64,000 nucleotides of DNA from an archaeon (lineage in GTDB: Archaea > Asgardarchaeota > Thorarchaeia > Thorarchaeales > Thorarchaeaceae): NCBI GenBank assembly GCA_024276825.1, contig JAJRWI010000077.1:14502-78501 (forward strand), written 5' to 3'. Numbering within the stretch: position 1 is the stretch's first letter; each line of letters begins with the position of its first letter. Below the pieces are notes generated by a model. The model saw nothing but the letters and a program-made list of their open reading frames with translations. It was not told where the DNA came from and searched no databases. The position numbers were made by a program, and so were the translations under genes. Shown in pieces: positions 2-14,694 of this stretch.

Positions 2-2779
2 CACAACTTTACTATTGACGTCATAGTATACGACATATCACGAACAAACGTAACTGTTGACGGTGCTGATTTAACATATCAGTGGTATATGCAATATGTA
101 GTAGATCAAAGTGGTACTCTGACAAACAACGGCAATGGATCATATTCGGTCACTCTCAATGCATATGATGCCCTGCCTTTGAGTCAATTGTATACTGTGA
201 CAATATCTGCAACCATGGCTGGTTCCACATCATCAAGCATTACTATCTTTGTGCGTATCAACTCCGTACCAAATGAGATAGTCCTAGAACAGAGTTTCTT
301 TGAGGTATATTATGCAGATGTGTTTGATGTACGATTCTATTGGAACAACACCTTGGATAACCAACCAATAACTTCTGCAGATTCAACAACTTACTATCTT
401 GCATCACTTGGTACTTATATCACAACAGGTGTAAATGAGGGCGAAGGCTGGTATCACTTTACAGTTGACACCCGGGCTCTGGAAATGAATACTGATGGGG
501 CAGCAGTTTATGTGATTCAAATAACTCATGCAAAAGATGGATACGCGCCACATGATATCACAACAGTCATCATTCTCGTCAGAGAGACCGATGCATCACT
601 TGTAGTGGACCCGATTGACAATGTCAACTGGTCAGACAGCTTCACAATCACCGCAAGTCTATATGATGACAGGCATGGTGACCTAATCTGGATTGGTGCA
701 CAGGTGACCGTTTCATATGGCACATATTCAGCTGTGATGACCAACAATCTGGATGGCACTTTCACAGTGGCAATAGACTCAGATGCTTGGTTTGCAGCAT
801 CAGCCATTCCATATAACCTGACATTCACCTATACTATCCCGAATTATGTTGATAGCACCAACTCATCATCAGTCATCATCGACCCGATTCCTGGTGTCAT
901 AAACAAGGATCCGACAACTGATGATCCAATAGTGGTGATTTGGGGTGATATGGTGACTGTGCGTGTGAGTGTCAATAACATCTATGGTGGTGGAAACACG
1001 CCGATAGATGACACAGCAGTCTACTATCTATGGAGTGGTTATGATACACTCCATCCAATGACCTTCTTGCCAAGCACCCATGACTACTATGTTGAGTTCA
1101 ACTCTAGTGAAGTTCCCTCAGGAAGCTATAACTTGATTGTACGTGTGATCAATGAGAACTTTACGATTCCAGATCTTCTAATCTCCGCAACCGTCAATCC
1201 AGTCAGCACAACTCTGATTGGTGATGTGAACTCCATAGTAGCGATTGTTGGTGTAGACCAGACTGCACGAGTCGTGCTCACATACTCAATGGTTGGTGGT
1301 ACACCGCTATCAGGTGCAACAGTCTACTATGACTGGGCTGGACTAACAAGAAATGGAATTCCAAGTGATGGGAACTATGTATGCGACTTTAATCCAAGTG
1401 AAACCACACTTGATGTTCCCGGAGTCTATGTCTTGACCTTCCATGCCGAGCTTCAGAACTATACAGCACAGACCTATAATGTGTCTCTCCATTTGATTGC
1501 ACAGACAGAGATTCAGGTCGAGAATCAAGTACTTCAGTCTGACCAGATTCTACGCCTGCACTTCAAGTATTATGATTTGACTAATGATCGCGAGGTGCCT
1601 GTATCAGCCATCATCAGTCTTACTTTGATTCTCCCGGATGGCAGCACAATGCCTGTAAACCTTGACAACCATGATACAAATGGATACTTTGTAGACATTG
1701 CAGCCACTGCAATTGGTGAAGAGAGCACAGATGCATATCCACTTTACATAATTGCCTTGGCAACTGGCTATCAGAATCACACTCAGACTGAATATCCCGA
1801 GAGCTTCACTGTTCTCATCATCGAACCTCAGATTGAGATTCCAGTACTTTCCAACTTCATTGGTCCCATTCCAAAGTCTTGGTTGATACTGGCAGGTGGA
1901 ATCAGCTTCATATTTCTCATTGGAATTGCTGGAGCAGTGGCCATACGCCGCATGAGGATTCCATACCAGATAAAGCAGATCAACAAGGCTCTAAAGGCAA
2001 TTGAGAACCAGAAGCGGGCAGAGGTAGAAGGAATCAAGAGCATGGGTCAGGTGATTGCAGAGCTGCTGGCTCCTGGTCTAGCAGAATTGAATCTACCTGC
2101 CCCAGTGATTGAGGTTGGTCCATCTGAAATATACGAGGAAGTCCTTGATGAGGAGACCGAGGGTCTGCTTGATGAACTAGATGCCCTCGAAGACATTGGC
2201 GAGGCAGAAGGAGCTCCTGAAGAGCCTATTGATTATGAGGCCGAACTTCAGGCTGAACTCGAGGCAGTGGAAGTTCCTGAGGAACCAACTGAGATTAAGC
2301 CAGAGGTTGAGGAAGCGGCAGAAGAGCCAGAGGTGGAAGAGCCCACTGAAGAGGTTGAAGCTGAACCTGAACCTGAGCCTGAAGCAGAGGTTGAAGCTGA
2401 GGCTGAAGAGAAACCCGAACCAGAGGCCAAAGCTGAAGCTGAATTGGAAGGTGAAGAAGCCCCTGTCGAACCTGCCATTGAACCAGAAGCTGAAGAGAGT
2501 GAAGACACAACTACTGAGGAACCTGACTCATTGGAAGAGGAACCAGTTTCTGAAGACTCCGAAGCAGACTCTGAAGAGCCAACTGACGAATCGTTTGAAG
2601 AAGATATGGCCGAGTCGACCGAGTCAACTGATATTGGCGAGTCACTCTCAAAGGAGGAGATCATTGAGCGTTTGCCACCAGAAATCAAGGAATCCATGAG
2701 TGTGGAGGAGTTGAAAGCGCTCACAAAGGAGGAACTCCTTGCCCTTCTCAAGTCACCTAAACAGGGAGGTGAGGAGTGA
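2..2779 (+). CDS. Receptor-like surface protein, 5'-truncated by the window edge. It has a beta-sandwich-rich ectodomain with many NxS/T sequons, a single TM (~1881-1950), a conserved juxtamembrane motif and a ~290-aa polyacidic E/P-rich cytoplasmic tail. It is a paralog of the 2822-9379 protein.
   Basis: The frame is open from nt 2, upstream of the annotated ATG at 89, so the N-terminus lies outside the window. A hydrophobic stretch LILAGGISFIFLIGIAGAVAI is followed by RRMRIPYQIKQINKALKAIENQKRAEVEGIKSMG. The tail is low-complexity E/P/A-rich. The ectodomain is collinear with the C-terminal 600 aa of the next protein's ectodomain. Confidence 0.8.
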   Translation, partial: HNFTIDVIVYDISRTNVTVDGADLTYQWYMQYVVDQSGTLTNNGNGSYSVTLNAYDALPLSQLYTVTISATMAGSTSSSITIFVRINSVPNEIVLEQSFFEVYYADVFDVRFYWNNTLDNQPITSADSTTYYLASLGTYITTGVNEGEGWYHFTVDTRALEMNTDGAAVYVIQITHAKDGYAPHDITTVIILVRETDASLVVDPIDNVNWSDSFTITASLYDDRHGDLIWIGAQVTVSYGTYSAVMTNNLDGTFTVAIDSDAWFAASAIPYNLTFTYTIPNYVDSTNSSSVIIDPIPGVINKDPTTDDPIVVIWGDMVTVRVSVNNIYGGGNTPIDDTAVYYLWSGYDTLHPMTFLPSTHDYYVEFNSSEVPSGSYNLIVRVINENFTIPDLLISATVNPVSTTLIGDVNSIVAIVGVDQTARVVLTYSMVGGTPLSGATVYYDWAGLTRNGIPSDGNYVCDFNPSETTLDVPGVYVLTFHAELQNYTAQTYNVSLHLIAQTEIQVENQVLQSDQILRLHFKYYDLTNDREVPVSAIISLTLILPDGSTMPVNLDNHDTNGYFVDIAATAIGEESTDAYPLYIIALATGYQNHTQTEYPESFTVLIIEPQIEIPVLSNFIGPIPKSWLILAGGISFIFLIGIAGAVAIRRMRIPYQIKQINKALKAIENQKRAEVEGIKSMGQVIAELLAPGLAELNLPAPVIEVGPSEIYEEVLDEETEGLLDELDALEDIGEAEGAPEEPIDYEAELQAELEAVEVPEEPTEIKPEVEEAAEEPEVEEPTEEVEAEPEPEPEAEVEAEAEEKPEPEAKAEAELEGEEAPVEPAIEPEAEESEDTTTEEPDSLEEEPVSEDSEADSEEPTDESFEEDMAESTESTDIGESLSKEEIIERLPPEIKESMSVEELKALTKEELLALLKSPKQGGEE

Positions 2780-2821: not shown

Positions 2822-5800
2822 ATGCTAACGATGCGGAGAAAGATACTACTTCTGTCATTTGTTCTCGTTTTCTTGTTGATTCCAGGATCCAACAATGCTA
2901 TCTTTGATACAGTCAGACAAGACCTTGCAGTGACGAATCACTCCACAATATCAGCAGATATTGAGGAGTCGACGCCTTGGTGGAACACAACATTCCATTA
3001 TAGAATGCATGTAAATCTCACCGACACGAACTCTACCACTCGTGTTGATGTTCCTACTCACGTGTGGCTGACCTTTGAGAACAATACCTGTTACAAGTAT
3101 TCCATCCGTGTTGTTGACAGTAACAATGTCGAGGTCCCATCTCAAGTATACAACTACACATATTGGGAAAACCCCAACTATGTGAAGAGTGCCACAGTCT
3201 TCTGGTACGCCAATATCAGCGCTGACAGCACTTCAGTCTACTGGGTCTATTTTTCAGAACTAACAACAATTGAACAGACAAACTATGACTCAGTCGTCTG
3301 GTTTGCTCGAACTACGGGGGCTCTCTCTGGAAAGTTCGATGTAAATTATTGGAGCTTTCGTGGGGAGTGGTACAATGTCACCATGTACAATGCAGCCGGT
3401 GGAAAGATCACTAATGGTGCCCACAAGAAGGCTGATGGAACTTGGGACTGGAACTGGGGCACCAATCGTGGAAGCATGCACTGGAATCCTGATGGTCTTG
3501 GAGGGCAGGCGACCTCTGCAACTCCTCCCATCTCAGGCACAACTTTTGTAAACATCAATGGTCCCCTCTTCATTAATTATACTACCCAGCTTCCATTTGG
3601 ATCTTATGCAAAATTGAATGTGACCTATACATTCTATAAATGGGGCTGGATCACTAGAATATACATCAAATACACTGCTTCTACTGGTGGTTCAGGGCGT
3701 ACTGATGAATGGGTGTTCTACCCTTACTTGACTATTGAGGGAATTGAGGTGGCCCCTGATGGAACCCAGACCTATTACAGTAACTGGGCCCCAAGTTCAA
3801 ACAAGGGTTTACCTGCAGGCTTTGGCTGGTGGAACAACAACGGCATTTCTCATGGCACTGTCAGAATCTTGCATGAGGCCTACAACATGCCAGCAGGTCA
3901 TGAGGATGACTTCAATAACTACTATTACAGATGGTGGGATACAAGCTCATATGAATTCTGGGACACATATCATCCAAGTGTGACTGTTCAGGCAGGTACT
4001 GTTCTTAAGGAAGAATGTGCTTTTGCAGTCTGGAACGGTGCAGAGGGCGAGGATGGCTACATGAGAGTGTTCAACGCCACTTCCCGATATCTGCCCATAT
4101 TTCGAGAAATAAGCAATGTGTCATCCTATTCATTCAGAATCAATGTGAAGGATCTTGGTGGAAACAATATCGAGGGAGCAAATGTCACGCTTCTCAATCC
4201 CATTACTGGTGCAAGACTGTACAAGCCAACTGGTGCACCCTATACCGATCTCACGGACTCAGATGGAAACGTCACCTTCATTGGTCTTCTCAATCAGACA
4301 TACCGAATCGATGTCTGGATTGATACAACAACATGGCTTACTCCTGAAGCTGGTGCTACAGGAATGAACGTGACCTGGAGCGGCACAGCTGTGGCCGATG
4401 GCCCATTTACACCAGTTTCAATCACGTTGGACCTCGCATCAATCACAATTCATCTGGATGATCTCGCTGGTGACCCCTTGGGCACAGTTGGCGCAGAAAC
4501 AGTCAAAGTCTGGATATACAATGCCAGCGATCCTTCAAGGGCGAACTGGAAGTACATGGACTATGAGACCACAGACTCATCTGGCGATCTCACATTCTAT
4601 AGACTGCCTAAATGCGATTGGTTGTTCAACTTCACCTATAGCAACACCGATACTGGTCATATATACACAAAAGCGGACTTTGGTCTTTACGTGTCGCATA
4701 ACATTGATGAGAGTCTGATAACTGATGATCTCACACGAAGCTGGGTGCTACCTCTCACAACCATTGACTTCTATGTGGAGGCTTATGATGGACAACCTGT
4801 AGAGAATACATATGTCAGAATCTCAAAAGCAGGCACAGCAGATCCCATAGCAACAGGAGTTACGGACTCCTATAACATCACCCATATGACAGATGCCAAT
4901 GGAAATGTCACCTTCTACCGAGTACTAAAGGGCAACTGGACAGTCGTTGTCTACAGAACTGATGACTATGGCCAGACTGCTTACAATACAAGTGAATATG
5001 TCTATGACACAACAGGTTATGCTTACAAGAAGATATCTATTCCTCTAACTTGGCTACGAATACGAGTTGTGGACAATAATAACAACCGAGTAACTGGCGC
5101 AAAGATCGATCTCTATGCTAATGGCGTTTTTCTTGTGACTGCCTATTCAGACAGTGCGGGTGAGTACAATTTTCATTGGATCAAAGCCAATGATACTTCA
5201 ATTGGATGGAGTTATACTGTTACTATTAGTAAGAACACAGCCCAAACTAGTGATTCGGTTTATGCTTCATATGACTATCTCCATTGGAACACTATTACAT
5301 TAACACCACCTGCTTATACTCAGAAATATACCGAACTCAACTGCACAGCCTCCGTATATTCATGGTATTATGCAGATAATGGGACATTCCAAATTGGCTG
5401 GTTCAATCGTACCAGCACAAGCCCATCAACGTGGGAAGACCAATCTTTGAATCAATCTGAGTACTTTGCAGGAACCATGAATTTCACAATATCTCATAAT
5501 GGTGTTGTGATTGGGTTCGGTGTGTGGAATTCTACCCACCATCTATATATCTCGCATTATACATCCGATGGGATATATTTCACAATTGCAATTGATACAT
5601 TACTTTTCAAAATGAATGCGAGCAATATACCCTATATTATAACAATAAAGGCTGAAACTCCCAATTATGATGCTCCTGAAGAATATACTGTGACCGTTGT
5701 TATCTCAGTGGCAAGTACTACTAGAAATGGAGCCACTTCATTGGAGGCATATTACCTTGATGGCTTTGCTGCATTATATTCATTGACAACAAATCCCTCT

Positions 5801-8800
5801 GGACGCGACGCTCTCAATCTGACTGATCTCGACTTTACGAACTATACAATTTATGACTCCGATAACAATATTATTTCAACAGGCAATCTCACCCATCTTG
5901 GCTCCGGCATCTATCGGTTCTCGGACTCCAACCTCAATACATCAGATGTTGGAAGCTATGAGATTGTAATCTGGCTTCATAAACTGAACTATATGAACCA
6001 TACTTTCACTTTAACAGTCACAATCAATGCAGTGCTAACTGAACTTGTCTGGACCACCGACCCATCTGATTATACTTGGGGCACAGGAATAAGTTTTGTA
6101 ACCCTTGAGTTTCGAGATACTGTTCATGGGGGAACGATATCTGGTGTGTCAGTGACGTATTCATGGATAGACGTTTCATCAGGGACAACTGTTCTCGTAG
6201 AGTCATCAAGTTCTCTGACATACTTGTATGCAAACAATATTGTTGCAAATGGCACATATCGAATCTATGCCTATGCCACCAAACAAAATTATCTCGCTGC
6301 TGATAGTACATCTGTTTCTTTTCTGGTTTCTCCCGCAAGTACAAGCATCTCGCTGAAATCATCCGACACAATAACTATTGAATGGGGCAGCGAATATGCA
6401 GAGTTTGACTTTGACTATGTTCAGGCACCTTTCACCGTAGCGGGCGCCTCTGTGATTAATATTGATTGGACTGGAGAATACAGTCTTGTTGATTATGACA
6501 ATGGAACTTACACATTGAGAATGCTTGCAGTTCAAGAAGCAGCAAACTATACAGTCACTTTCACGATGTGGATAGAAAATCGTACCAAGGCCTCAGAGAC
6601 CGTATATGTCAATGTGCTGATCCCATTGGATGTTTCATCATCTGAAGGGAAATCACTACAAGACCCAATTCAGGAGTACTGGACACGTTCATTCATGCTA
6701 CAAGTAATCGCTGGAGATCAATCCAATCAATCAGAATATGTTTCTGGAGTAATTGTCACTTACAACTTTCCAGCGGGTGGTATCTCTGGAACTTTCACAG
6801 AGAACGCCACTGGTCAATACTATTGGCTGGAGTTTCCAGCATCACTTGCTCCTGGTCCTGGAGTGTACGAGATTCAAGTGGAAGCAGCAAGAATTGGGTG
6901 CACAGGAACTTCTCTGTCAATTTACATTGAAGTTCTTCCAACTCCAACAAGGATAACCGCTCAGAATCAATTATTGACAGTCTACTATGCAGACTCTTAC
7001 CTACTCAATTTCAGCTGGTCAACAACTATTGATACTCCTGTTGGCATTGAAGGGCCAGATAATGTGCACATTGAACTATGGAAGAGCACGAGTCTTGTCA
7101 ATGGAAGTATTGCTGGTATTGTTGAGCTGGGCAATGGTGACTATCAATTCTTGATGGACACACGAATGCTTGGAATGACCGCAGACTCTCCTCTATTTCC
7201 AACTAGTTATTACTTTGTCATCACAATGAACAAACTTGGATACGAGGAGCCTCTTGCCGTCACAATAATCATTCTTGTCTTGCAGACTCCTACAGAGATG
7301 ACAGCAGATCCAATAGAGCCAGTCATCTGGTCGGAAGATTTCACAGTCAGAGTTCACATTCGCGATATAGTTCACAATGAGTATGTCTGGACTGATGCTT
7401 CAGTATACTTCATTTATGAGGACATTAATGTTACAATGACCTCTCTTGGTAATGGGACATTTGTACTGACTGGCGATTCTGCTGACTATTTCTCATCGTC
7501 AGACTTGCCTCACTCAGTTACTATCATCTATACATTACCAAACTACGTTGATGGACAGATTCAGGTGGAAGTGCAGATCAATCCAAAACCTGCCTATATT
7601 CTTAATCTACCGCTAGATGATACTTATGACTGGACTGACACAATCGATCTTACTCTGGATATTATTATCAATGGCACAACCACAAGACTTGAGGTTGACA
7701 GTTGCTACTTCTATTGGAAAGAGTACCCTGCAATAAATGGAACACTCGCATATGATTCAATATTCAACAGATATCTTGGTACGGTGAACACAAAACTAGT
7801 TCCAGCAGGTAACCTGACACTTGTGCTTGCAGCAGTCAAGGGCAACTACACAATTCCTGAGATTGAAATCTCACTGGAAATTAAGCCATTGCCTGCCAAG
7901 CTTAATTCAGTATCTGGTGATCTGCTAACTGTGATATATGGTCTTGATCAGTCAGCTCAGATTATTATGGCATATACACACGGAGACAATGATACTGTTC
8001 TGGAAGGTGCGAGAATCACCTTCATTTGGAATGGCCTTGAGCGTGAGGCTCTGTGGAGTGATGGTCAATACATCTTCGAGTTTAATCCATCATCTGACAC
8101 TTCACTTGAAGTTCCTGGTACTCTGGAACTTGTGTTTACTGCAGCACTTCAGAACTACACAACTGAAACTACCACAGTTCTAATGAGACTCGCTGCAAGA
8201 ACCGAAATTGTTGGCGGTCCCTATCGAGTCGAGTCTGAACAATATCTCAATCTTATCTTCAAGTATTGGGATGTTGTCAATGACAGACCCGTTGGGTCTG
8301 CAGCCACGGTTCAATACCAGATTGGAAACAACACCCCTGTCACGGTGACTGCAGAGCAGTTTGATGGAACTCAGTACATAATTCGTATACTTGCCGATGA
8401 CATCGGTGAAGTGAGCCCCGATCCCTATCAGATCCGGATATTTGCAAGCGCACCTGGCTATCAGAATTGGACCGTATTGGATGATCCTCAATACATCACA
8501 GTCTATGTAGACCCACCTACTGTCCAAATACCATTAATAGGCCTATCAATTGAGAGGTCTACGCTGTTTTTGGTTGGCGGAGTCAGTCTGCTGTTCATTC
8601 TTGGTATACTAGGTGCAATCGCAGTTCAACGCATGCGTATACCTTACCAGATTAAGCAGATTAACAAAGCACTGAAAGCTATTGAGAATGACAAGAAGGC
8701 CCGTGTTGAGGGCATCAAATCCATGGGCACTATCATCTGGGAGCTTCTTGAGCCTGGTCTAGCCACACTCAATATCACCCCTGATGTTCTTGGCGCAATC

Positions 8801-9379
8801 TTGGAAGCTCCCGTAGAAGAAGAGATTGCACTTGAAACTGAGGAACTCCTTGATGAGCTTGAGGCGCTTGAAGATATTGAGGCCGAACCAACTCGGGAAG
8901 ATGCTGCTTATGAGGAAGAATTGGTCGCCGAACTGGAAGAAGCAGTTGAAACCGCCGCGCAACCCGTAGAAGTCACAGGGCTGGTGGAAGAGCAGCCCGA
9001 AACCGGAAAGGCAGAGTTGATGCCAGAGGCTGAAGAAGAAACAACAGAAGAATCGGGGCCTGAAGAGGAACTCGAAGAAGATGAAGAAACTGACACTGGA
9101 GAACCTATTACCGAACCAGAACCCCCAGCTGATGAAGAGCCTAGCATGCCAGATGAAGAACCCATTGAAGATCTAAAGGACGACACAATCGAGCCTGACA
9201 TGGACGAAACTGAAGAGTCAGCGGGAAACATCGACCGGCCAGAAGAAGATGAATCTGTTGAATCCAATGATGAGGCGCCTGAGCCAGAATCGCAACTAGA
9301 TGAAGCCCCCTCTGATGACTCTGATGAATCATCTGGATCAACTGATCTTGTTGATGGAAATGGTGAAGGTGATGAATGA
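2822..9379 (+). CDS. Giant (2185 aa) secreted, membrane-anchored surface glycoprotein-like protein. It has a signal peptide, a DUF2341-like N-terminal region, multiple carboxypeptidase-regulatory/Ig-like beta-sandwich domains, a C-terminal TM (~8563-8628), a conserved juxtamembrane motif and a polyacidic tail.
   Basis: ATG at 2822 is preceded by GGAGG. The signal peptide is MLTMRRKILLLSFVLVFLLIPGSNNA. There are dozens of N-x-S/T sequons. The TM stretch is LFLVGGVSLLFILGILGAIAV, then QRMRIPYQIKQINKALKAIENDKKARVEGIKSMG, then a D/E/P-rich tail of about 290 aa. Confidence 0.85.
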   Translation: MLTMRRKILLLSFVLVFLLIPGSNNAIFDTVRQDLAVTNHSTISADIEESTPWWNTTFHYRMHVNLTDTNSTTRVDVPTHVWLTFENNTCYKYSIRVVDSNNVEVPSQVYNYTYWENPNYVKSATVFWYANISADSTSVYWVYFSELTTIEQTNYDSVVWFARTTGALSGKFDVNYWSFRGEWYNVTMYNAAGGKITNGAHKKADGTWDWNWGTNRGSMHWNPDGLGGQATSATPPISGTTFVNINGPLFINYTTQLPFGSYAKLNVTYTFYKWGWITRIYIKYTASTGGSGRTDEWVFYPYLTIEGIEVAPDGTQTYYSNWAPSSNKGLPAGFGWWNNNGISHGTVRILHEAYNMPAGHEDDFNNYYYRWWDTSSYEFWDTYHPSVTVQAGTVLKEECAFAVWNGAEGEDGYMRVFNATSRYLPIFREISNVSSYSFRINVKDLGGNNIEGANVTLLNPITGARLYKPTGAPYTDLTDSDGNVTFIGLLNQTYRIDVWIDTTTWLTPEAGATGMNVTWSGTAVADGPFTPVSITLDLASITIHLDDLAGDPLGTVGAETVKVWIYNASDPSRANWKYMDYETTDSSGDLTFYRLPKCDWLFNFTYSNTDTGHIYTKADFGLYVSHNIDESLITDDLTRSWVLPLTTIDFYVEAYDGQPVENTYVRISKAGTADPIATGVTDSYNITHMTDANGNVTFYRVLKGNWTVVVYRTDDYGQTAYNTSEYVYDTTGYAYKKISIPLTWLRIRVVDNNNNRVTGAKIDLYANGVFLVTAYSDSAGEYNFHWIKANDTSIGWSYTVTISKNTAQTSDSVYASYDYLHWNTITLTPPAYTQKYTELNCTASVYSWYYADNGTFQIGWFNRTSTSPSTWEDQSLNQSEYFAGTMNFTISHNGVVIGFGVWNSTHHLYISHYTSDGIYFTIAIDTLLFKMNASNIPYIITIKAETPNYDAPEEYTVTVVISVASTTRNGATSLEAYYLDGFAALYSLTTNPSGRDALNLTDLDFTNYTIYDSDNNIISTGNLTHLGSGIYRFSDSNLNTSDVGSYEIVIWLHKLNYMNHTFTLTVTINAVLTELVWTTDPSDYTWGTGISFVTLEFRDTVHGGTISGVSVTYSWIDVSSGTTVLVESSSSLTYLYANNIVANGTYRIYAYATKQNYLAADSTSVSFLVSPASTSISLKSSDTITIEWGSEYAEFDFDYVQAPFTVAGASVINIDWTGEYSLVDYDNGTYTLRMLAVQEAANYTVTFTMWIENRTKASETVYVNVLIPLDVSSSEGKSLQDPIQEYWTRSFMLQVIAGDQSNQSEYVSGVIVTYNFPAGGISGTFTENATGQYYWLEFPASLAPGPGVYEIQVEAARIGCTGTSLSIYIEVLPTPTRITAQNQLLTVYYADSYLLNFSWSTTIDTPVGIEGPDNVHIELWKSTSLVNGSIAGIVELGNGDYQFLMDTRMLGMTADSPLFPTSYYFVITMNKLGYEEPLAVTIIILVLQTPTEMTADPIEPVIWSEDFTVRVHIRDIVHNEYVWTDASVYFIYEDINVTMTSLGNGTFVLTGDSADYFSSSDLPHSVTIIYTLPNYVDGQIQVEVQINPKPAYILNLPLDDTYDWTDTIDLTLDIIINGTTTRLEVDSCYFYWKEYPAINGTLAYDSIFNRYLGTVNTKLVPAGNLTLVLAAVKGNYTIPEIEISLEIKPLPAKLNSVSGDLLTVIYGLDQSAQIIMAYTHGDNDTVLEGARITFIWNGLEREALWSDGQYIFEFNPSSDTSLEVPGTLELVFTAALQNYTTETTTVLMRLAARTEIVGGPYRVESEQYLNLIFKYWDVVNDRPVGSAATVQYQIGNNTPVTVTAEQFDGTQYIIRILADDIGEVSPDPYQIRIFASAPGYQNWTVLDDPQYITVYVDPPTVQIPLIGLSIERSTLFLVGGVSLLFILGILGAIAVQRMRIPYQIKQINKALKAIENDKKARVEGIKSMGTIIWELLEPGLATLNITPDVLGAILEAPVEEEIALETEELLDELEALEDIEAEPTREDAAYEEELVAELEEAVETAAQPVEVTGLVEEQPETGKAELMPEAEEETTEESGPEEELEEDEETDTGEPITEPEPPADEEPSMPDEEPIEDLKDDTIEPDMDETEESAGNIDRPEEDESVESNDEAPEPESQLDEAPSDDSDESSGSTDLVDGNGEGDE

Positions 9380-9498: not shown

Positions 9499-10380
9499 AT
9501 GATTAGAGAGATTCATGTCTTTAAGGATGGCGAGACTCTGTTCGAGGATGTCATTGTGCCCAACAAAGACCTAGACACAAAAGCAGTAATGATGCTTGTT
9601 TCCTCATCCTGCAAGAAACTGCAAGAGTGGAAAATTGACAGCATGGAGATTGAACGCTTTCGATATGTATACATGAACAGTCATGATACACAATTCATCA
9701 TCACTATGGACCGCCAGGCCTCATTAATGAAGGTTCACGAGGCAATGACATCTGCTGTATCAAAATTCATGACTGCCTTTGAGAGTGTTCTGGAAACTGA
9801 TGAATGGAAATCAACTGACTTTTCACCCTTCAAGGATGGCTTTAGAAGGATTGTCAGTAGGATTCCAGTGAAAGTCTGTCTTGCAGGTCATGGTGGTACC
9901 GGTAAAACAACTCTTCTTGAGCTTGCCACAATGCCATCGCAAGGGCCACCTCAAGAGTATGTGCCAACTTTCTTTGGCGATAAGGCTCTATTAAAGGCAG
10001 ACTTTGATCCATATGTGTTCAGCATGTTTGACCTTGGTGGCCAAGACCGTTTCGTACAAGAATGGGGCAAGATAATTCGGGCTGGTTCTCTTGTTGTGAT
10101 TGTGACAGACTCTACTACTGAGAACTTGGCATGGACCAAGAGAGTCGCTTACCCCGTTCTAAAGAACGAGTTACCTTATGCACGGGCAATAGCAATAGCA
10201 AACAAGCAGGATCTTCCTGGAGCTCTATCGCCTCAAGAGGTGAGCAGGAAGCTGGGAGTACCGGCGTACGGCATGCAGGCAAATAAGATGGACTTTAGAG
10301 ATCGATGGTTGAAACTGCTAAGAGGGTTGGCTTTTGAAACCCTTGATTTTGCAGTAGTAGGAGAAATAGAGGTGGAATAA
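9499..10380 (+). CDS. Roadblock/LC7-like N-terminal domain fused to an Arf-like (Arf/Arl-type) small GTPase.
   Basis: Residues 1-110 predict an alpha-beta-beta-alpha-beta-alpha roadblock-like fold. The GTPase motifs are G1 GHGGTGKTT, a switch I Thr in YVPTFFG, G3 FDLGGQDRF and G4 IANKQDLPGA. The DxGGQ + NKQDLP.A pair is the Arf-family signature. Confidence 0.8.
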   Translation: MIREIHVFKDGETLFEDVIVPNKDLDTKAVMMLVSSSCKKLQEWKIDSMEIERFRYVYMNSHDTQFIITMDRQASLMKVHEAMTSAVSKFMTAFESVLETDEWKSTDFSPFKDGFRRIVSRIPVKVCLAGHGGTGKTTLLELATMPSQGPPQEYVPTFFGDKALLKADFDPYVFSMFDLGGQDRFVQEWGKIIRAGSLVVIVTDSTTENLAWTKRVAYPVLKNELPYARAIAIANKQDLPGALSPQEVSRKLGVPAYGMQANKMDFRDRWLKLLRGLAFETLDFAVVGEIEVE

Positions 10381-10381
10381 G

Positions 10382-10942
10382 ATGTCAGATCCAAGTGAAA
10401 CCACAAAGAGTATACTTAGTGAGGAGGAGCGAAAGAGACTCATCACTGAAATTGGGAATATAAAGAATATTCTTGATAGCTTCAAATATGGCCTGAACTT
10501 CGAGCAATTCGCTGATGCTTTGTTCAAGACCATTGACCGCCAGACACTGGCAATCAACAAGCTAGAGGCGCAGATGAGAGAGATCATTGAGAGAATGAAG
10601 AATCTTGAGAAACGATTCGATGAAGGTATTAGAGTCACAGTTTCTGGAGCTGTGAGTGCCGAAGGTGGTATTGAACCAACAGAAGTGATAATTGGCGACA
10701 AGGCAGAAGAAAAGGCAAAAGAAGAACCAACTACTCCTCCTGATATTGAAGTCATCAAAAAAGAGATAGAAGAGCTGAAAATCAAAATTGCCAAGCTGTT
10801 CGAGAAGGAGAATGAACTCACTGAGATGGCCATGAATGACCCGGCAGCAGCCGATGAGTATGAAGAGAAAGCAAGAGTTGCTCGTGAAATGAGAGTTGAA
10901 CTGGAGGCCAAGAAAAAAGAATTGGAGGACAAACTGCAATAG
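10382..10942 (+). CDS. Coiled-coil protein (186 aa). Its start is 1 nt after the GTPase stop.
   Basis: Charged heptad-rich sequence with a K/E-rich C-terminal half. Translationally coupled to the upstream GTPase gene. Confidence 0.6.
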   Translation: MSDPSETTKSILSEEERKRLITEIGNIKNILDSFKYGLNFEQFADALFKTIDRQTLAINKLEAQMREIIERMKNLEKRFDEGIRVTVSGAVSAEGGIEPTEVIIGDKAEEKAKEEPTTPPDIEVIKKEIEELKIKIAKLFEKENELTEMAMNDPAAADEYEEKARVAREMRVELEAKKKELEDKLQ

Positions 10943-10957
10943 CAATTGAGGTGATCA

Positions 10958-11305
10958 ATGAAAATGGGAATTTTCGATAAATGGAGAAGGAAGAAGCACA
11001 GAGCTGAAATGAGTGGTACTAAAGTGCCTGCACCACGACCAATTTCTGCAAGGGAAATGAGTTCTGAAGTGCAGGCGGAGATAGTCAGTCTTGTTGCTGA
11101 ATATGAGCAATTGTACAAGCGACGATCAGAACTTCAAGCTGAAAGAAGCGAATTGACTGAGCGCCTGGACCGCGGTGAATTGACCGCAATTGAATTCAGG
11201 AAACTTCTGATGGAGAAGATTCAGGAAGCCGCACAAGTGGCAGAGAGCTTAAAAGCAACAGCTGCTCGGTTGACAGAACTCGGCTATCGTGGAGTACTTC
11301 GCTGA
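10958..11305 (+). CDS. Small coiled-coil protein (115 aa).
   Basis: A GAGGTGA Shine-Dalgarno sits 6 nt upstream. Basic N-terminus followed by a predicted long helix. Same operon orientation. Confidence 0.55.
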   Translation: MKMGIFDKWRRKKHRAEMSGTKVPAPRPISAREMSSEVQAEIVSLVAEYEQLYKRRSELQAERSELTERLDRGELTAIEFRKLLMEKIQEAAQVAESLKATAARLTELGYRGVLR

Positions 11306-12695
11306 GGTGGGAACGCTGTCCAGGCGTGAAGATGAAGAACCCGAGACCCCCTCTGATATTGAGGAAAGGACTCGTCAGCTAATGGAGAAAGCATTAGGCA
11401 CCTCTGAATCGACAGATGTGCATGATGAAGGAGCCCCATTAGCACCAAGCACATCTCTCGCGGGACAGATATCTGAAACTTTTTTCAGGATTCAGATTCG
11501 CATGGAAGATCTCATCTCATCGATTGAAGACTCGATTAGGTCTATAGAACCTGAGATCAACGAGTCCCTAAAGAGCACGATTGAATCCATTTCTGAGCGG
11601 TTAAGGCGTGAGGCAGGTCTTGGTGTGTTCACAAGCAAGACAGTGAAAATTGTAAGAGAAGAGCTGGAAAAGGCCCTCTCCGTAGAGGCAGTTCATAAGG
11701 GCCTATTTGCTGCTCTTGCTGAAAGCCGTGAACAGGTGCGTGACATAATTCAAAAAACCAGCCGCGGTTCAATTCGTGAAATTGACAGACGCATTAGCAC
11801 ATTACAATCGAAAATTGTTCATGTTTATGCCAGACTGAACGAGCGAGAGCAAGAGATTGACAAGTTAAGATCAACAATAACCGAGCTTCGCAGCAAGATT
11901 TCCGAGATGAATGACATAATCGCACGTAAGGACAAAGAGATGGCTGAATATGTTAAACGACTTGACTCATTATTAGCAACCAGAGACCAATTGGCTGCAA
12001 AACTTGTCGAACAAGACTCCACCATATCCTCATTAACTGGACAGCTCAAGCAAGCAAGCTCTGAGATATTGCAATTGAAGACAATGATTGAGAAGATGGA
12101 CTCTGCTGAGGAGCTTGTTGTCGAATATGAAAACATGACAAAGACACTATCTGAATTGCAGGGACGCTTGGCTGAACTTCAGGAAACCCTCAAGCAGAAA
12201 GACATGACTATTGACGAGCTAAGCGAAACAATTAAGGAGTTCAATGCCGAGAGATCTGAACTTCAGTCACGTGTGCAAGAATTGGATGAAGAGGTCTCAC
12301 AGCTTCGTGGTGCCAAAGAGGGCTTGCTGTTAGAGATCGAAACCCTCAGGCGAAAGATTGCTGAACTTCAGGCACGTTGGGAACTATTATATCAAGTGGC
12401 TGAGGAAAGCCCTGCTTTCAGAGCATATTTTGTGGTCGCTGATAAGGAACACTGGTTTCCCCTATCTCACCTGTCTTCAGCACTGGGCATTCCTGTTGTG
12501 CGACTGAAACAACAATTAGAACGATTCATAGAAGTTGGTCTCTTAGAGATTGATGGCGACCGCATCCGCCCGAAAAAGCTCACTGAGGTTGTCAAAGAGG
12601 TCTTGGACCAGGATGAAAGGGTCCTTTCAGAGGCGAGGGGGGACTTGGGCATGGGGGATGACACCAATAATGAACAATCAGACAACGATACATGA
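11289..12695 (+). CDS. Long coiled-coil protein (~460 aa) with a C-terminal winged-helix-like domain ending in ...GLLEIDGDRIRPKK. The start is uncertain (GTG at 11289 or GTG at 11307).
   Basis: An acidic N-terminus is followed by roughly 300 aa of heptad-rich sequence (LQSKIVHVYARLNEREQEIDKLRSTITELRSKISEMNDIIARKDKEMAEY...). The C-terminal segment looks like a winged helix. It overlaps the previous gene by 17 nt, or starts 1 nt after its TGA stop if GTG 11307 is used. Confidence 0.6.
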   Translation: MEYFAEVGTLSRREDEEPETPSDIEERTRQLMEKALGTSESTDVHDEGAPLAPSTSLAGQISETFFRIQIRMEDLISSIEDSIRSIEPEINESLKSTIESISERLRREAGLGVFTSKTVKIVREELEKALSVEAVHKGLFAALAESREQVRDIIQKTSRGSIREIDRRISTLQSKIVHVYARLNEREQEIDKLRSTITELRSKISEMNDIIARKDKEMAEYVKRLDSLLATRDQLAAKLVEQDSTISSLTGQLKQASSEILQLKTMIEKMDSAEELVVEYENMTKTLSELQGRLAELQETLKQKDMTIDELSETIKEFNAERSELQSRVQELDEEVSQLRGAKEGLLLEIETLRRKIAELQARWELLYQVAEESPAFRAYFVVADKEHWFPLSHLSSALGIPVVRLKQQLERFIEVGLLEIDGDRIRPKKLTEVVKEVLDQDERVLSEARGDLGMGDDTNNEQSDNDT

Positions 12696-12720
12696 ATAAC
12701 TAACTGGTAGGTGCATTGAA

Positions 12721-13062
12721 TTGGCAAGATCACTTGACGAAGTAATGAGGTTCCTAGAAAACTATACACTGGCTTGGCATCATTGGCTAATGATTCTAGC
12801 TTTGTTGAAATTGGGGGGTGCAGCGACCAAGGCGCAGATCTTCCCGGTGTACAAGAAGGAGGGCTTTTCTCCTCATGCAATTGAGGATGTGTTTCGCAGA
12901 GATTTGATAGAGCTTGGCGAAGCAATAGATATTGATGGCGACATAGACACTCTTCAAGACTCAACAATGATTTATCTTAGTGATAATCCCAAGTTTCAAC
13001 GGTTCATAAAGAAACATCTGAAGTCGGTGGTCCGAACTCTAAAGATGCAGAGACCGAACTGA
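12721..13062 (+). CDS. Small winged-helix-like protein (113 aa), paralogous to the C-terminal module of the 11289-12695 protein.
   Basis: It shares the motif ...LIELGEAIDIDGDIDTL with ...EVGLLEIDGDRIRP in the preceding protein. TTG start at 12721, or ATG at 12745. Confidence 0.45.
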   Translation: MARSLDEVMRFLENYTLAWHHWLMILALLKLGGAATKAQIFPVYKKEGFSPHAIEDVFRRDLIELGEAIDIDGDIDTLQDSTMIYLSDNPKFQRFIKKHLKSVVRTLKMQRPN

Positions 13063-13509: not shown

Positions 13510-14694
13510 TTGGTGTCAGATCAAATGGACTACTTGTCAACGGTTCTTTGGACGGATGAAGAGTTAGAGTTTAGAAATGAAGTTCGTGCCTTCTGCGAGA
13601 AAGAGATTGCTCCGATTGCTGACGAACTTGATAAAGGCCCCTATCCCCGTGAACTGATCCGCAAGATTGGACAGGCTGGATATATGGGGGTTCATCACTC
13701 AAAAGAGGCAGGTGGCTCTCAGAAAGGCCTCTCCTATGAGATTATTGTGGCTGAAGAGATATCTGCCGTGAATCCCGGACTGGACATGGCCAGAATGGCA
13801 TCCACAACTCTCTATGGTATGCCAATAAGCAAGTTCGGGACCGAGGAGCAGAAAAAGAAATACCTTCTTCCCATCGTGAACGGAGAAAAGATAGGGTGTA
13901 TTGGCATCACCGAGCCAGATGTTGGTTCGGACACCGCTGGAATGAAGACCCGTGCTGAGAAGGATGGCGATGAATGGGTCATCAATGGAGAGAAACGGTT
14001 TATCACAAATGGCAGTCAGGCTGATTACATGTGCTGCTTTGCTATCACTGATCCTACGGTGAAATCGAAGCAGGGGATGACCGCATTCATTGTGGATACA
14101 AAGACTGATGGGTTCAGTGTGGTCAAGGATCATGACCTTATGGGTATGAAGTCCGCAAGGGTTTCATGGCTGAAACTTGAGAATGTCAGGGTGCCACCTG
14201 GAATGGTCTTGGGCGAGCCTGGTCAGGGGTTTCAAATCCTCATGGATGAACTTGATAGTGAGAGGACGGCAATTGCCGCCGAGGCTATTGGATATGGCCG
14301 CACACCATTTGAAGTTGCTGTAAAGTATTCAAATGAACGGGTTCAATTTGGAAGACCCATAAGAGCGTTTGAGGGTGTCAGTTTCAAGATTGCTGATATG
14401 TACATGAAGCTTGAAGCTGCTCGCGCACTGACCCTAACTGCCGCAAGAATGTATGATAAGGGATTGAAGATCACCAAACAGGCTTCTATTGCCAAACTCT
14501 ATGCCACCGAGGCTGCCATTCAGATCACCAATGATGCTCTTCAAGTACTTGGAGGTATGGGCTACACCACAGAATATCCCGTTGAACGCTTTCTAAGGGA
14601 TGCCCGCCTAATGACAATTGGTGGTGGGACCGCTGAGATTTTGCGGTTCTTGATTCAGAGAGAGATCTTCAAGGAATTCTTCCCTAAAAAATAG
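13510..14694 (+). CDS. Acyl-CoA dehydrogenase.
   Basis: Typical ACAD length and motifs (GITEPDVGSD, FITNG, ...GGMGYTTEYPVERFLRDARLMTIGGGTAEI). The likely true start is the ATG at 13525 (MDYLSTV...). Confidence 0.85.
   Translation: MVSDQMDYLSTVLWTDEELEFRNEVRAFCEKEIAPIADELDKGPYPRELIRKIGQAGYMGVHHSKEAGGSQKGLSYEIIVAEEISAVNPGLDMARMASTTLYGMPISKFGTEEQKKKYLLPIVNGEKIGCIGITEPDVGSDTAGMKTRAEKDGDEWVINGEKRFITNGSQADYMCCFAITDPTVKSKQGMTAFIVDTKTDGFSVVKDHDLMGMKSARVSWLKLENVRVPPGMVLGEPGQGFQILMDELDSERTAIAAEAIGYGRTPFEVAVKYSNERVQFGRPIRAFEGVSFKIADMYMKLEAARALTLTAARMYDKGLKITKQASIAKLYATEAAIQITNDALQVLGGMGYTTEYPVERFLRDARLMTIGGGTAEILRFLIQREIFKEFFPKK

Follow-up and report, generated by a model that had tools for sequence, protein, structure and literature searches.

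The window, i.e., the whole stretch of 64,000 nucleotides that was analyzed, contains a gene for a small GTPase with a fused N-terminal domain, which is preceded by two paralogous genes for giant surface proteins and followed by genes for four smaller proteins, here called partners A to D (Table 1). As the preliminary description had proposed, the GTPase is encoded by a single open reading frame (ORF), which was borne out on the forward strand with an ATG start and 293 codons for amino acids. The two motifs cited there, FDLGGQDRF and IANKQDLPGA, are both present exactly. The protein consists of two domains, an alpha/beta domain and a small GTPase domain (G domain), as delimited by the AF2 model, Pfam, and the motifs.

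Table 1. Features of the GTPase locus. Positions are those of the window; aa, residues of the GTPase protein. Fractions for the partners refer to testable loci from 38 genomes, and invariance was scored on 120 homologues.
Feature	Position	Strand	Basis or remark
Giant surface protein, first paralog	89..2779		C-terminal TM helix, conserved cytoplasmic segment, long acidic tail
Giant surface protein directly upstream, 2185 aa	2822..9379	+	Signal peptide, C-terminal TM helix, conserved cytoplasmic juxtamembrane segment, acidic tail
Longin::ArfL small GTPase, complete ORF, 293 aa	9499..10380	+	ATG start; ORF list; same-length homologues
Predicted N-terminal longin domain, aa 1–120	9499..9858	+	Predicted fold
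ArfL-class small GTPase domain, aa 123–293	9865..10377	+	Pfam Arf, 47.7 bits; best blastp matches to seven labeled ArfL; NJ clade with 97.5% bootstrap
G1/P-loop GHGGTGKT, aa 130–137	9886..9909	+	Invariant, 120/120
G2/switch I PTFFG with T157	9964..9978	+	T157 invariant, 120/120; aligns with Arf1 IPTIGF
Motif FDLGGQDRF, aa 177–185	10027..10053	+	Motif mapping
G3/switch II DLGGQ, aa 178–182	10030..10044	+	Catalytic-type Gln182; invariant, 120/120
Motif IANKQDLPGA, aa 233–242	10195..10224	+	Motif mapping
G4 NKQD, aa 235–238	10201..10212	+	Invariant, 120/120
G5 QAN, aa 260–262	10276..10284	+	A261 invariant; aligns with [VT]A[IV][DN] of the labeled ArfL in the available part of Table S3
Partner A, 186 aa, coiled-coil/acidic	10382..10942	+	Start codon 1 nt past the GTPase stop; in 24/37 Thorarchaeota loci
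Partner B, 115 aa, basic N-terminus and helical region with ELTERLDRGELT..EFRK	10958..11305	+	In 37/37 loci
Partner C, 468 aa, long coiled coil	11289..12695	+	Start codon uncertain; in 23/35 loci
Partner D, 113 aa	12721..13062	+	In 26/26 loci

A sequence search among 5.8 billion proteins returned 244 matches to the GTPase protein. The best 120 clusters of these matches are 77–100% identical, have about 293 amino acids, and are mostly labeled Thorarchaeota. When one genome per species was scanned, the gene was found in 38 species-level genomes, nearly all labeled Thorarchaeota, including the founding Thorarchaeota MAG SMTZ1-45 and the complete chromosome CP070658.1. Over 120 homologous clusters that match it in length at this level of identity, together with its occurrence in 38 genomes, show that the ORF is a real gene and no chance frame. 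Across the 120 homologues, the mean identity to the window protein is 78% in the N-terminal half and 84% in the C-terminal half, indicating similar constraint on both. Many of the Thorarchaeota orthologues carry the NCBI name "ADP-ribosylation factor-like protein."

The N-terminal domain had been described as roadblock/LC7-like, and this identity does not hold. Two AF2 models, both based on a shallow alignment (77–100% identity), were obtained for the full-length protein (mean pLDDT 81.7; about 84–94 in blocks of the N-terminal domain) and for the N-terminal domain alone (pLDDT 83.4; 78–83 in all five models). Both agree on the order of the elements, namely β1 (residues 2–9), β2 (12–18), α1 (27–39), β3 (46–51), β4 (54–61), β5 (64–71), α2 (76–98), and α3 (111–119). 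This β-β-α-β-β-β-α-α order, strand-first and with two C-terminal helices, is the longin arrangement. Because β1 begins at residue 2, there is no helix before it, whereas the roadblock topology, unlike that of longin domains, has a helix before β1 (Tran et al., 2024, PMC10933270). In a structure comparison with the N-terminal domain model, the nearest solved structures are longin domains, which align over almost the whole domain, and 33 longin structures rank above the first roadblock match. The roadblock/LC7 identity is thus contradicted by the missing N-terminal helix, the absence of a Robl_LC7 match in Pfam, and the higher ranking of these 33 structures. The structure prediction and comparison suggested in the preliminary description therefore returned a non-roadblock fold, a result that the description itself had named as speaking against its claim. 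The annotation of residues 1–120 is corrected here from roadblock to a predicted longin domain, an assignment made entirely from the predicted fold.

Sequence searches gave little for this domain. Pfam produced neither a Robl_LC7 nor a longin-family match at E ≤ 1, and NCBIfam recognized no family. The profile of the N-terminal domain family matched nothing relevant among all PDB sequences, and the curated longin families (Pfam Longin, Sedlin_N, SRP-alpha_N, Clat_adaptor_s, and similar) gave no profile match. An exhaustive phmmer search against 1.84 billion representatives yielded six matches, of which three are fragments, one is a PAS protein hit regarded as spurious, and two are full-length but distant relatives. 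The two relatives (P0124 and P0125) have the same two-domain architecture and are, besides the family itself, the only relevant phmmer matches of this domain. The longin and roadblock folds are related to each other.

For the G domain, all Ras-superfamily G motifs (G1–G5) are present and conserved. Judging from its sequence, the domain is catalytically intact, with every nucleotide-binding and catalytic element in place, including Gln182. Pfam matched residues 124–255 to the Arf family (PF00025) well above the cut-off of 22.3 bits, while other Pfam scores were 18.0 for Ras and 16.0 for SRPRB (cut-off 25), and no match to Gtr1_RagA (PF04670) was found in the window protein. The general small GTPase model TIGR00231 (small_GTP) scored 40.4, just short of its cut-off of 42.5. 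Among PDB sequences, yeast Arf1 (E = 8e-11) and GerdArfR1 of Asgard origin (8oun) match best, and the top Foldseek ranks are likewise taken by GerdArfR1 and Arf1/2.

Two Asgard groups of Arf-related GTPases have been distinguished, i.e., ArfR, which led to eukaryotic Arf/Arl/Sar/SRbeta, and a separate ArfL clade for which a direct relationship to eukaryotic Arf is denied (Vargova et al., bioRxiv 10.1101/2024.02.28.582541). ArfL was defined by Klinger et al. (2016). Author-labeled Asgard GTPase sequences from the accessible part of Table S3 of Vargova et al. were compared with the window G domain locally by blastp. All seven labeled ArfL in that part are the top matches, with 68–99 bits and 33–39% identity. 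Scores were lower for yeast/human Arf1, Arf6, Arl1, and GerdArfR1 (46–59 bits; Arf/ArfR identity 26–32%), for RasL, RagGtr, RagA, MglA, Rab1, and Sar1 (at most 41 bits), and for the labeled MglA1 and MglA2-5 and M. xanthus MglA (≤30 bits). A neighbor-joining (NJ) tree was inferred from 37 sequences and 156 columns with 200 bootstraps and MglA as the outgroup; it is a small, distance-based tree for which the eukaryotic and M. xanthus references were entered by hand, and its only ArfR entry is a partial sequence taken from PDB. In this tree, the window protein, a Thorarchaeota homologue, P0124, and P0125 are nested inside the ArfL clade with 97.5% bootstrap support, apart from the eukaryotic Arf/Arl/Sar plus ArfR, RagGtr, RasL, and MglA groups. 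By these sequence relationships, the window G domain is ArfL and not Arf proper. The motifs of the window family were not found in Table S3 as far as its Lokiarchaeales rows; the Thorarchaeia rows come later in that table.

These results separate two parts of the preliminary description. Its proposal of an Arf/Arl-type G domain outside MglA, Rag, and Ras stands insofar as the domain is Arf-like by Pfam and the Ras-superfamily tree suggested there places it within neither the MglA nor the Rag clade, but the affinity is to ArfL rather than to eukaryotic Arf/Arl. The reading of FDLGGQDRF and IANKQDLPGA as a eukaryotic Arf/Arl signature has to be given up. The ArfL protein NVM28297.1 in the available part of Table S3 carries WDLGGQDQF and IANKQDLPGALSP, the same G3/G4 motifs as the window protein, and because Asgard ArfL share them, these motifs are not diagnostic of eukaryotic Arf/Arl.

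The fusion itself has relatives in other Asgard archaea. Among the seven Helarchaeales ArfL in the accessible part of Table S3, four carry an N-terminal domain of some 125 residues ahead of the G domain. Three of these four align with residues 1–274 of the window protein in blastp (E 1e-30 to 1e-34), and the N-terminal domain alone has 27% identity to NVM30058.1 over 114 aa. In addition, the N-terminal domain profiles of the Thorarchaeota and Helarchaeales ArfL match each other in hhalign (probability 96.6%, E 6e-10, 115 columns). The full-length alignment and this profile match indicate that the two-domain protein is homologous across Asgard orders. The Helarchaeales proteins NVM30058.1, NVM28342.1, NVM28386.1, and NVM30212.1, as well as WP_162306730.1 of MK-D1, have the same domain order and linker position as the window protein, and Asgard longin-ArfL have matching G-domain motifs (VTDST.EN, ANKQDLPGA, and [Y]G[M].A). 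The MK-D1 ArfL entries likewise start with longin-like N-termini. The Helarchaeales longin-ArfL differ from the window protein in that identity is merely 25–31% and in that several Helarchaeales ArfL have long C-terminal extensions, which the window protein lacks.

Asgard small GTPases and their longin/roadblock partners are under study because the membrane-trafficking switches of eukaryotes may derive from them, and fusions of this type were noted early. For Lokiarchaeum, a 2016 study reported five cases of a longin domain fused to an Arf-like GTPase (Klinger et al., as summarized by Dey, Thattai and Baum, PMC4917890). In MK-D1, longin-GTPase, GTPase-roadblock, and longin-GTPase-roadblock architectures are known (Tran et al., 2024, PMC10933270), Asgard Arfs with N-terminal "additional domains (such as longin)" have been described (PMC11914678), and longin-GTPase fusions are mentioned by Liu et al. 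In Asgard surveys, roadblock domains pair with Ras-like and Rag-like GTPases, not with Arf-like ones (PMC4917890, PMC10933270, PMC11914678). Because longin::Arf-like fusions have been reported since 2016, the longin::ArfL architecture is neither unusual nor new, contrary to what had been supposed of the covalent fusion. The search for the same fusion in Asgard genomes, also suggested at that stage, succeeded, with the 38 species-level genomes and the homologous Helarchaeales ArfL as its yield. The window protein is a conserved Thorarchaeota instance of the known longin::ArfL kind and not a new kind. The earlier idea of a eukaryote-like GTPase fusion in an archaeon is retained in the sense that, in an Asgard archaeon, an Arf-like G domain is covalently joined to an alpha/beta domain of the type that partners GTPases, and is amended in that the G domain is ArfL rather than Arf proper.

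The gene neighborhood is the only aspect of this locus that was not found described in the Asgard GTPase literature consulted, and it is possibly undescribed. None of partners A to D has a match above the cut-off to a curated family in Pfam or NCBIfam; partner C has only sub-threshold coiled-coil matches there and ends in a conserved C-terminal segment that is winged-helix-like by eye. Both giant surface proteins have a C-terminal TM helix and a long acidic tail, their cytoplasmic segments (RMRIPYQIKQINKALKAIEN..VEGIKSMG) are nearly identical, and the juxtamembrane peptide of the giant surface protein is RMRIPYQIKQINKALKAIENDKKARVEGIKSMG. The gene order of the window recurs in three other Thorarchaeota genomes. 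A homologue of the giant surface protein lies upstream of the GTPase gene in loci L001, L005, and L006, and its C-terminal region lies upstream in L004 as well. The tail motif of the giant proteins was found upstream of the GTPase gene in 27 of 36 loci and is thus frequent, not universal. Synteny within Thorarchaeota is partly due to shared ancestry.

Partners A and C and the giant-protein tail occur in about two thirds of the loci and are missing from about one third. In the remaining third, a different protein (E) is encoded upstream, followed by the GTPase, B, and D. Protein E has about 400 aa (MPEGLAVMKWDDELGPVV...) and ArsR-type winged-helix Pfam matches. Its gene also precedes that of P0125, with 33% identity over the full length, and neither an E homologue nor any further small GTPase was found within the 64-kb window. 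An NPRL2-like longin protein was reported in most Thor MAGs (Liu et al.), and one might guess that E, which has only the ArsR-type winged-helix matches in Pfam, is this protein. The genes downstream of the two distant relatives were also recognized by HMM, with A (2e-5, weak), B (2e-27), C (5e-49), and D (4e-18) at the P0124 locus (L002) and B (7e-10) and C (1e-14) at the P0125 locus (L004). The neighborhoods of P0124 and P0125 are otherwise different from that of the window. These distributions, as seen in genome sequences, suggest that the GTPase, B, and D make up a core unit to which different accessories can be added.

The window protein, as the Thorarchaeota-wide longin-fused ArfL orthologue, probably acts as a GTP/GDP switch with a longin platform for dimerization and/or partner docking. 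Such a switch would work without the Arf-type amphipathic membrane anchor. In the AF2 model, α3 of the longin domain ends three residues ahead of β1 of the G domain, and phmmer pairs residue 120 with residue 14 of Arf1. Given this linker of about three residues and this alignment, the longin domain occupies the sequence position of the Arf N-terminal helix. There, it may serve as a built-in protein–protein platform, by analogy with eukaryotes, where longin domains are such platforms for SRbeta, Rag, Rab, and Arf GTPases. The nucleotide state would then control assembly with the co-encoded helical/winged-helix-like proteins, with B and D always and with A and C in the window genome, possibly at the tails that the neighboring giant surface proteins extend into the cytoplasm. 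Since Gln182 is present and no intrinsic arginine finger was seen to be conserved across longin-ArfL, hydrolysis probably needs a GAP in trans. The sole family-invariant arginine in the longin domain is R72. This residue was considered as a general cis arginine finger and ruled out, since the homologous longin-ArfL of Helarchaeales carry T, Q, Q, or P there instead.

Several other explanations may be considered. The one put forward in the preliminary description, i.e., a roadblock/LC7 domain (MglB- or LAMTOR-like) fused to a eukaryote-type Arf/Arl domain as a novel membrane regulator with a GAP/GEF platform in cis, is scarcely credible given the strand-first fold and the missing Robl_LC7 match discussed above, together with a G domain within ArfL, not Arf/ArfR. 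With Arf/Arl/Sar1 and ArfR (GerdArfR1, PDB 8oum/8oun), the window protein has in common DxGGQ and NKQD as well as the Thr of switch I and the Trp of switch II (GGQDRFVQEW in the window protein, GGQDKIRPLW in Arf1). In Arf proteins, GTP-dependent membrane binding is mediated by an N-terminal amphipathic helix that is usually myristoylated at Gly2. In the window protein, neither this helix nor a Gly2 site is present; its N-terminus, MIREIHVF, is β1 of the longin domain, and the G domain starts from residue 123. Equally hard to credit is the idea that the protein represents a fused form of the SRP receptor of eukaryotes (SRX longin of SRalpha plus SRbeta), as its relative or precursor, and acts in co-translational targeting. 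In the SRX(SRalpha):SRbeta structures (PDB 1nrj, 2go5, 5ck3), the longin-type and GTPase components are two polypeptides and SRbeta has a TM anchor, whereas the window protein is one chain that contains no TM segment, and so no N-terminal TM anchor, and lacks the NG domain of SRalpha. Moreover, the SRPRB score stays below its cut-off, the module contains no SRP or translocon genes, and the published phylogeny has SRbeta arising from ArfR, not ArfL. If the protein were a pseudo-GTPase or had a purely structural role, with a G domain that has ceased to cycle, this would fit the low pLDDT of the switch I loop (residues 147–159) and the TIGR00231 score slightly under the cut-off. Such a loss is very unlikely given that all 120 homologues keep G1–G5 unchanged, including the P-loop Lys/Thr, T157, D178, Q182, NKQD, and A261.

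Rag proteins provide another parallel, with a fused roadblock/longin-superfamily domain that mediates dimerization. Like the window protein, Rag/Gtr and the Asgard RagGtr/"Rag-like" proteins, including LokiRagM (PDB 9m28), for which the literature search found no paper, combine a small GTPase with a domain of this superfamily. The window protein could then be a Rag/Gtr-type GTPase with a permuted N-terminal dimerization domain, forming an obligate dimer that signals nutrients as RagA/C or the Asgard "Rag-like" L-G proteins do (Tran et al.). This is improbable. Rag proteins have the G domain followed by a C-terminal roadblock domain and HKxD at G4 (also the case in most labeled Asgard RagGtr sequences in the available part of Table S3), whereas the window protein has the longin domain first, NKQD, no C-terminal domain after the G domain, and a place in a separate clade. 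A further explanation has the longin domain working in cis, as an SRX:SRbeta-like or longin-GAP-like lock that binds the switches of the attached G domain and sets the GTPase rate. This alternative has to be taken seriously but is rather unlikely. The arginine R72 is not kept in the Helarchaeales longin-ArfL, and the short linker joins the longin domain at the start of the G-domain β1, where Arf has its N-terminal helix; judging from Arf structures, this side points away from the nucleotide pocket. Four of the five full-length AF2 models have low confidence (mean pLDDT 62, 62, 47, and 39 against 81.7 for the one confident model), so that the relative orientation of the domains is unreliable, and the invariant co-encoded partners favor action in trans. 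The eukaryotic longin regulators and effectors of small GTPases (TRAPP, Mon1-Ccz1, DENN, FLCN-FNIP, NPRL2/3, C9orf72-SMCR8, sigma/mu-adaptins, delta/zeta-COP) act in trans, and most of them form longin heterodimers. In the window protein, neither a catalytic residue nor an interface could be mapped.

For the longin-fused ArfL protein, the analysis provides an annotation corrected to longin plus ArfL and a concrete set of candidate partners, in which B and D are invariantly co-encoded, while A, C, E, and the tails of the giant surface proteins are frequent neighbors. To our knowledge, no function is known for ArfL GTPases, and this set could therefore make ArfL function experimentally approachable. 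A more specific proposal can be made only tentatively. The longin-ArfL protein, B, and D may constitute a nucleotide-switch module across Thorarchaeota, so far undescribed, that, with either A/C and the giant surface proteins or E, couples the surface giants to a cytoplasmic coiled-coil scaffold. If so, the module would be an archaeal GTPase-controlled organizer of the surface and cytoskeleton, with a logic like that of MglA polarity modules or Arf-coat recruitment. The pairing of an alpha/beta platform domain with a small GTPase is common to the window protein, MglA-MglB, and Ragulator-Rag.

Four genes (A to D) follow the longin-ArfL GTPase gene on the same strand and form a conserved module with it. 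The most constant members are protein B (115 aa), which carries the motif ELTERLDRGELT..EFRK and was found in all 37 testable loci, and protein D (113 aa), which was found in 26 of 26; both also occur in two distant lineages. Protein A (186 aa) is present in about two-thirds of the loci, and so is protein C (468 aa), a coiled coil whose C-terminal segment is winged-helix-like in appearance. None of the four proteins matched a curated family. As mechanically called, gene C starts at a GTG within gene B, whose last 17 nt (window 11289–11305) are shared by the two genes. Given that gene C in L001 and L006, two of the compared loci, begins just past B, and that protein C of the window aligns with its L001 homolog only from residue 23 onward, the true start probably lies further downstream.

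Features of the GTPase neighborhood in the window and in compared loci
Feature	Position	Strand	Remark
Surface/secreted giant protein, 896 aa	window 89–2779	+	paralog of the 2822–9379 product
Surface/secreted giant protein, 2185 aa	window 2822–9379	+	paralog of the 89–2779 product
Module A–D	window 10382–13062	+	conserved on GTPase strand; also at L001, L002, L004–L044
Gene for protein E	L020 2769–3932; L021, L023, L027, L035–L044; L004 638–1750
493-aa gene between C and D	L002 11018–12499	+	P0124 lineage
Additional Arf-like GTPase gene	L004 3766–4311	-
Additional Arf-like GTPase gene	L004 4571–5572	+

About one-third of the Thorarchaeota genomes have a different layout, in which the gene order is E, GTPase, B, and D, and A, C, and the giant protein are missing. 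Protein E (~390–470 aa) begins with MPEGLAVMKWDDELGPVV and has ArsR/HTH_5-type winged-helix matches around residues 280–320. An NPRL2-like family has been reported from Thor MAGs (Liu et al.), and protein E could correspond to it. By eye, its N-terminus appears longin- or uDENN-like. The 64-kb window contains no homolog of E.

Genes beyond the module, which encode an acyl-CoA dehydrogenase, an OB-fold ChsH2-like protein, and aconitase (window 13510–14694 and neighbors), are also syntenic among Thorarchaeota. Part of the synteny within the order thus comes from limited rearrangement and not from functional linkage.

Both giant proteins upstream of the GTPase have many N-glycosylation sequons, a C-terminal transmembrane helix, and a very long acidic tail, and their juxtamembrane cytoplasmic segments (RMRIPYQIKQINKALKAIEN.K.A.VEGIKSMG) are nearly identical. 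The tail motif is found upstream of the GTPase at 27 of 36 loci and also at the distant locus L004, which hints at a docking site in the cytoplasm.

At L002, the locus of the distant homolog P0124, the product of the 493-aa gene has no Pfam match; over its first ~27 residues it is similar to the start of protein E, with an E-value of only 0.003–0.013. At L004, the locus of the other distant homolog (P0125), one of the two additional Arf-like GTPase genes encodes a 333-aa protein that aligns over its full length with the window GTPase (25% identity, E-value 2e-20) and, judged from this alignment, is a second longin-ArfL paralog within that neighborhood.
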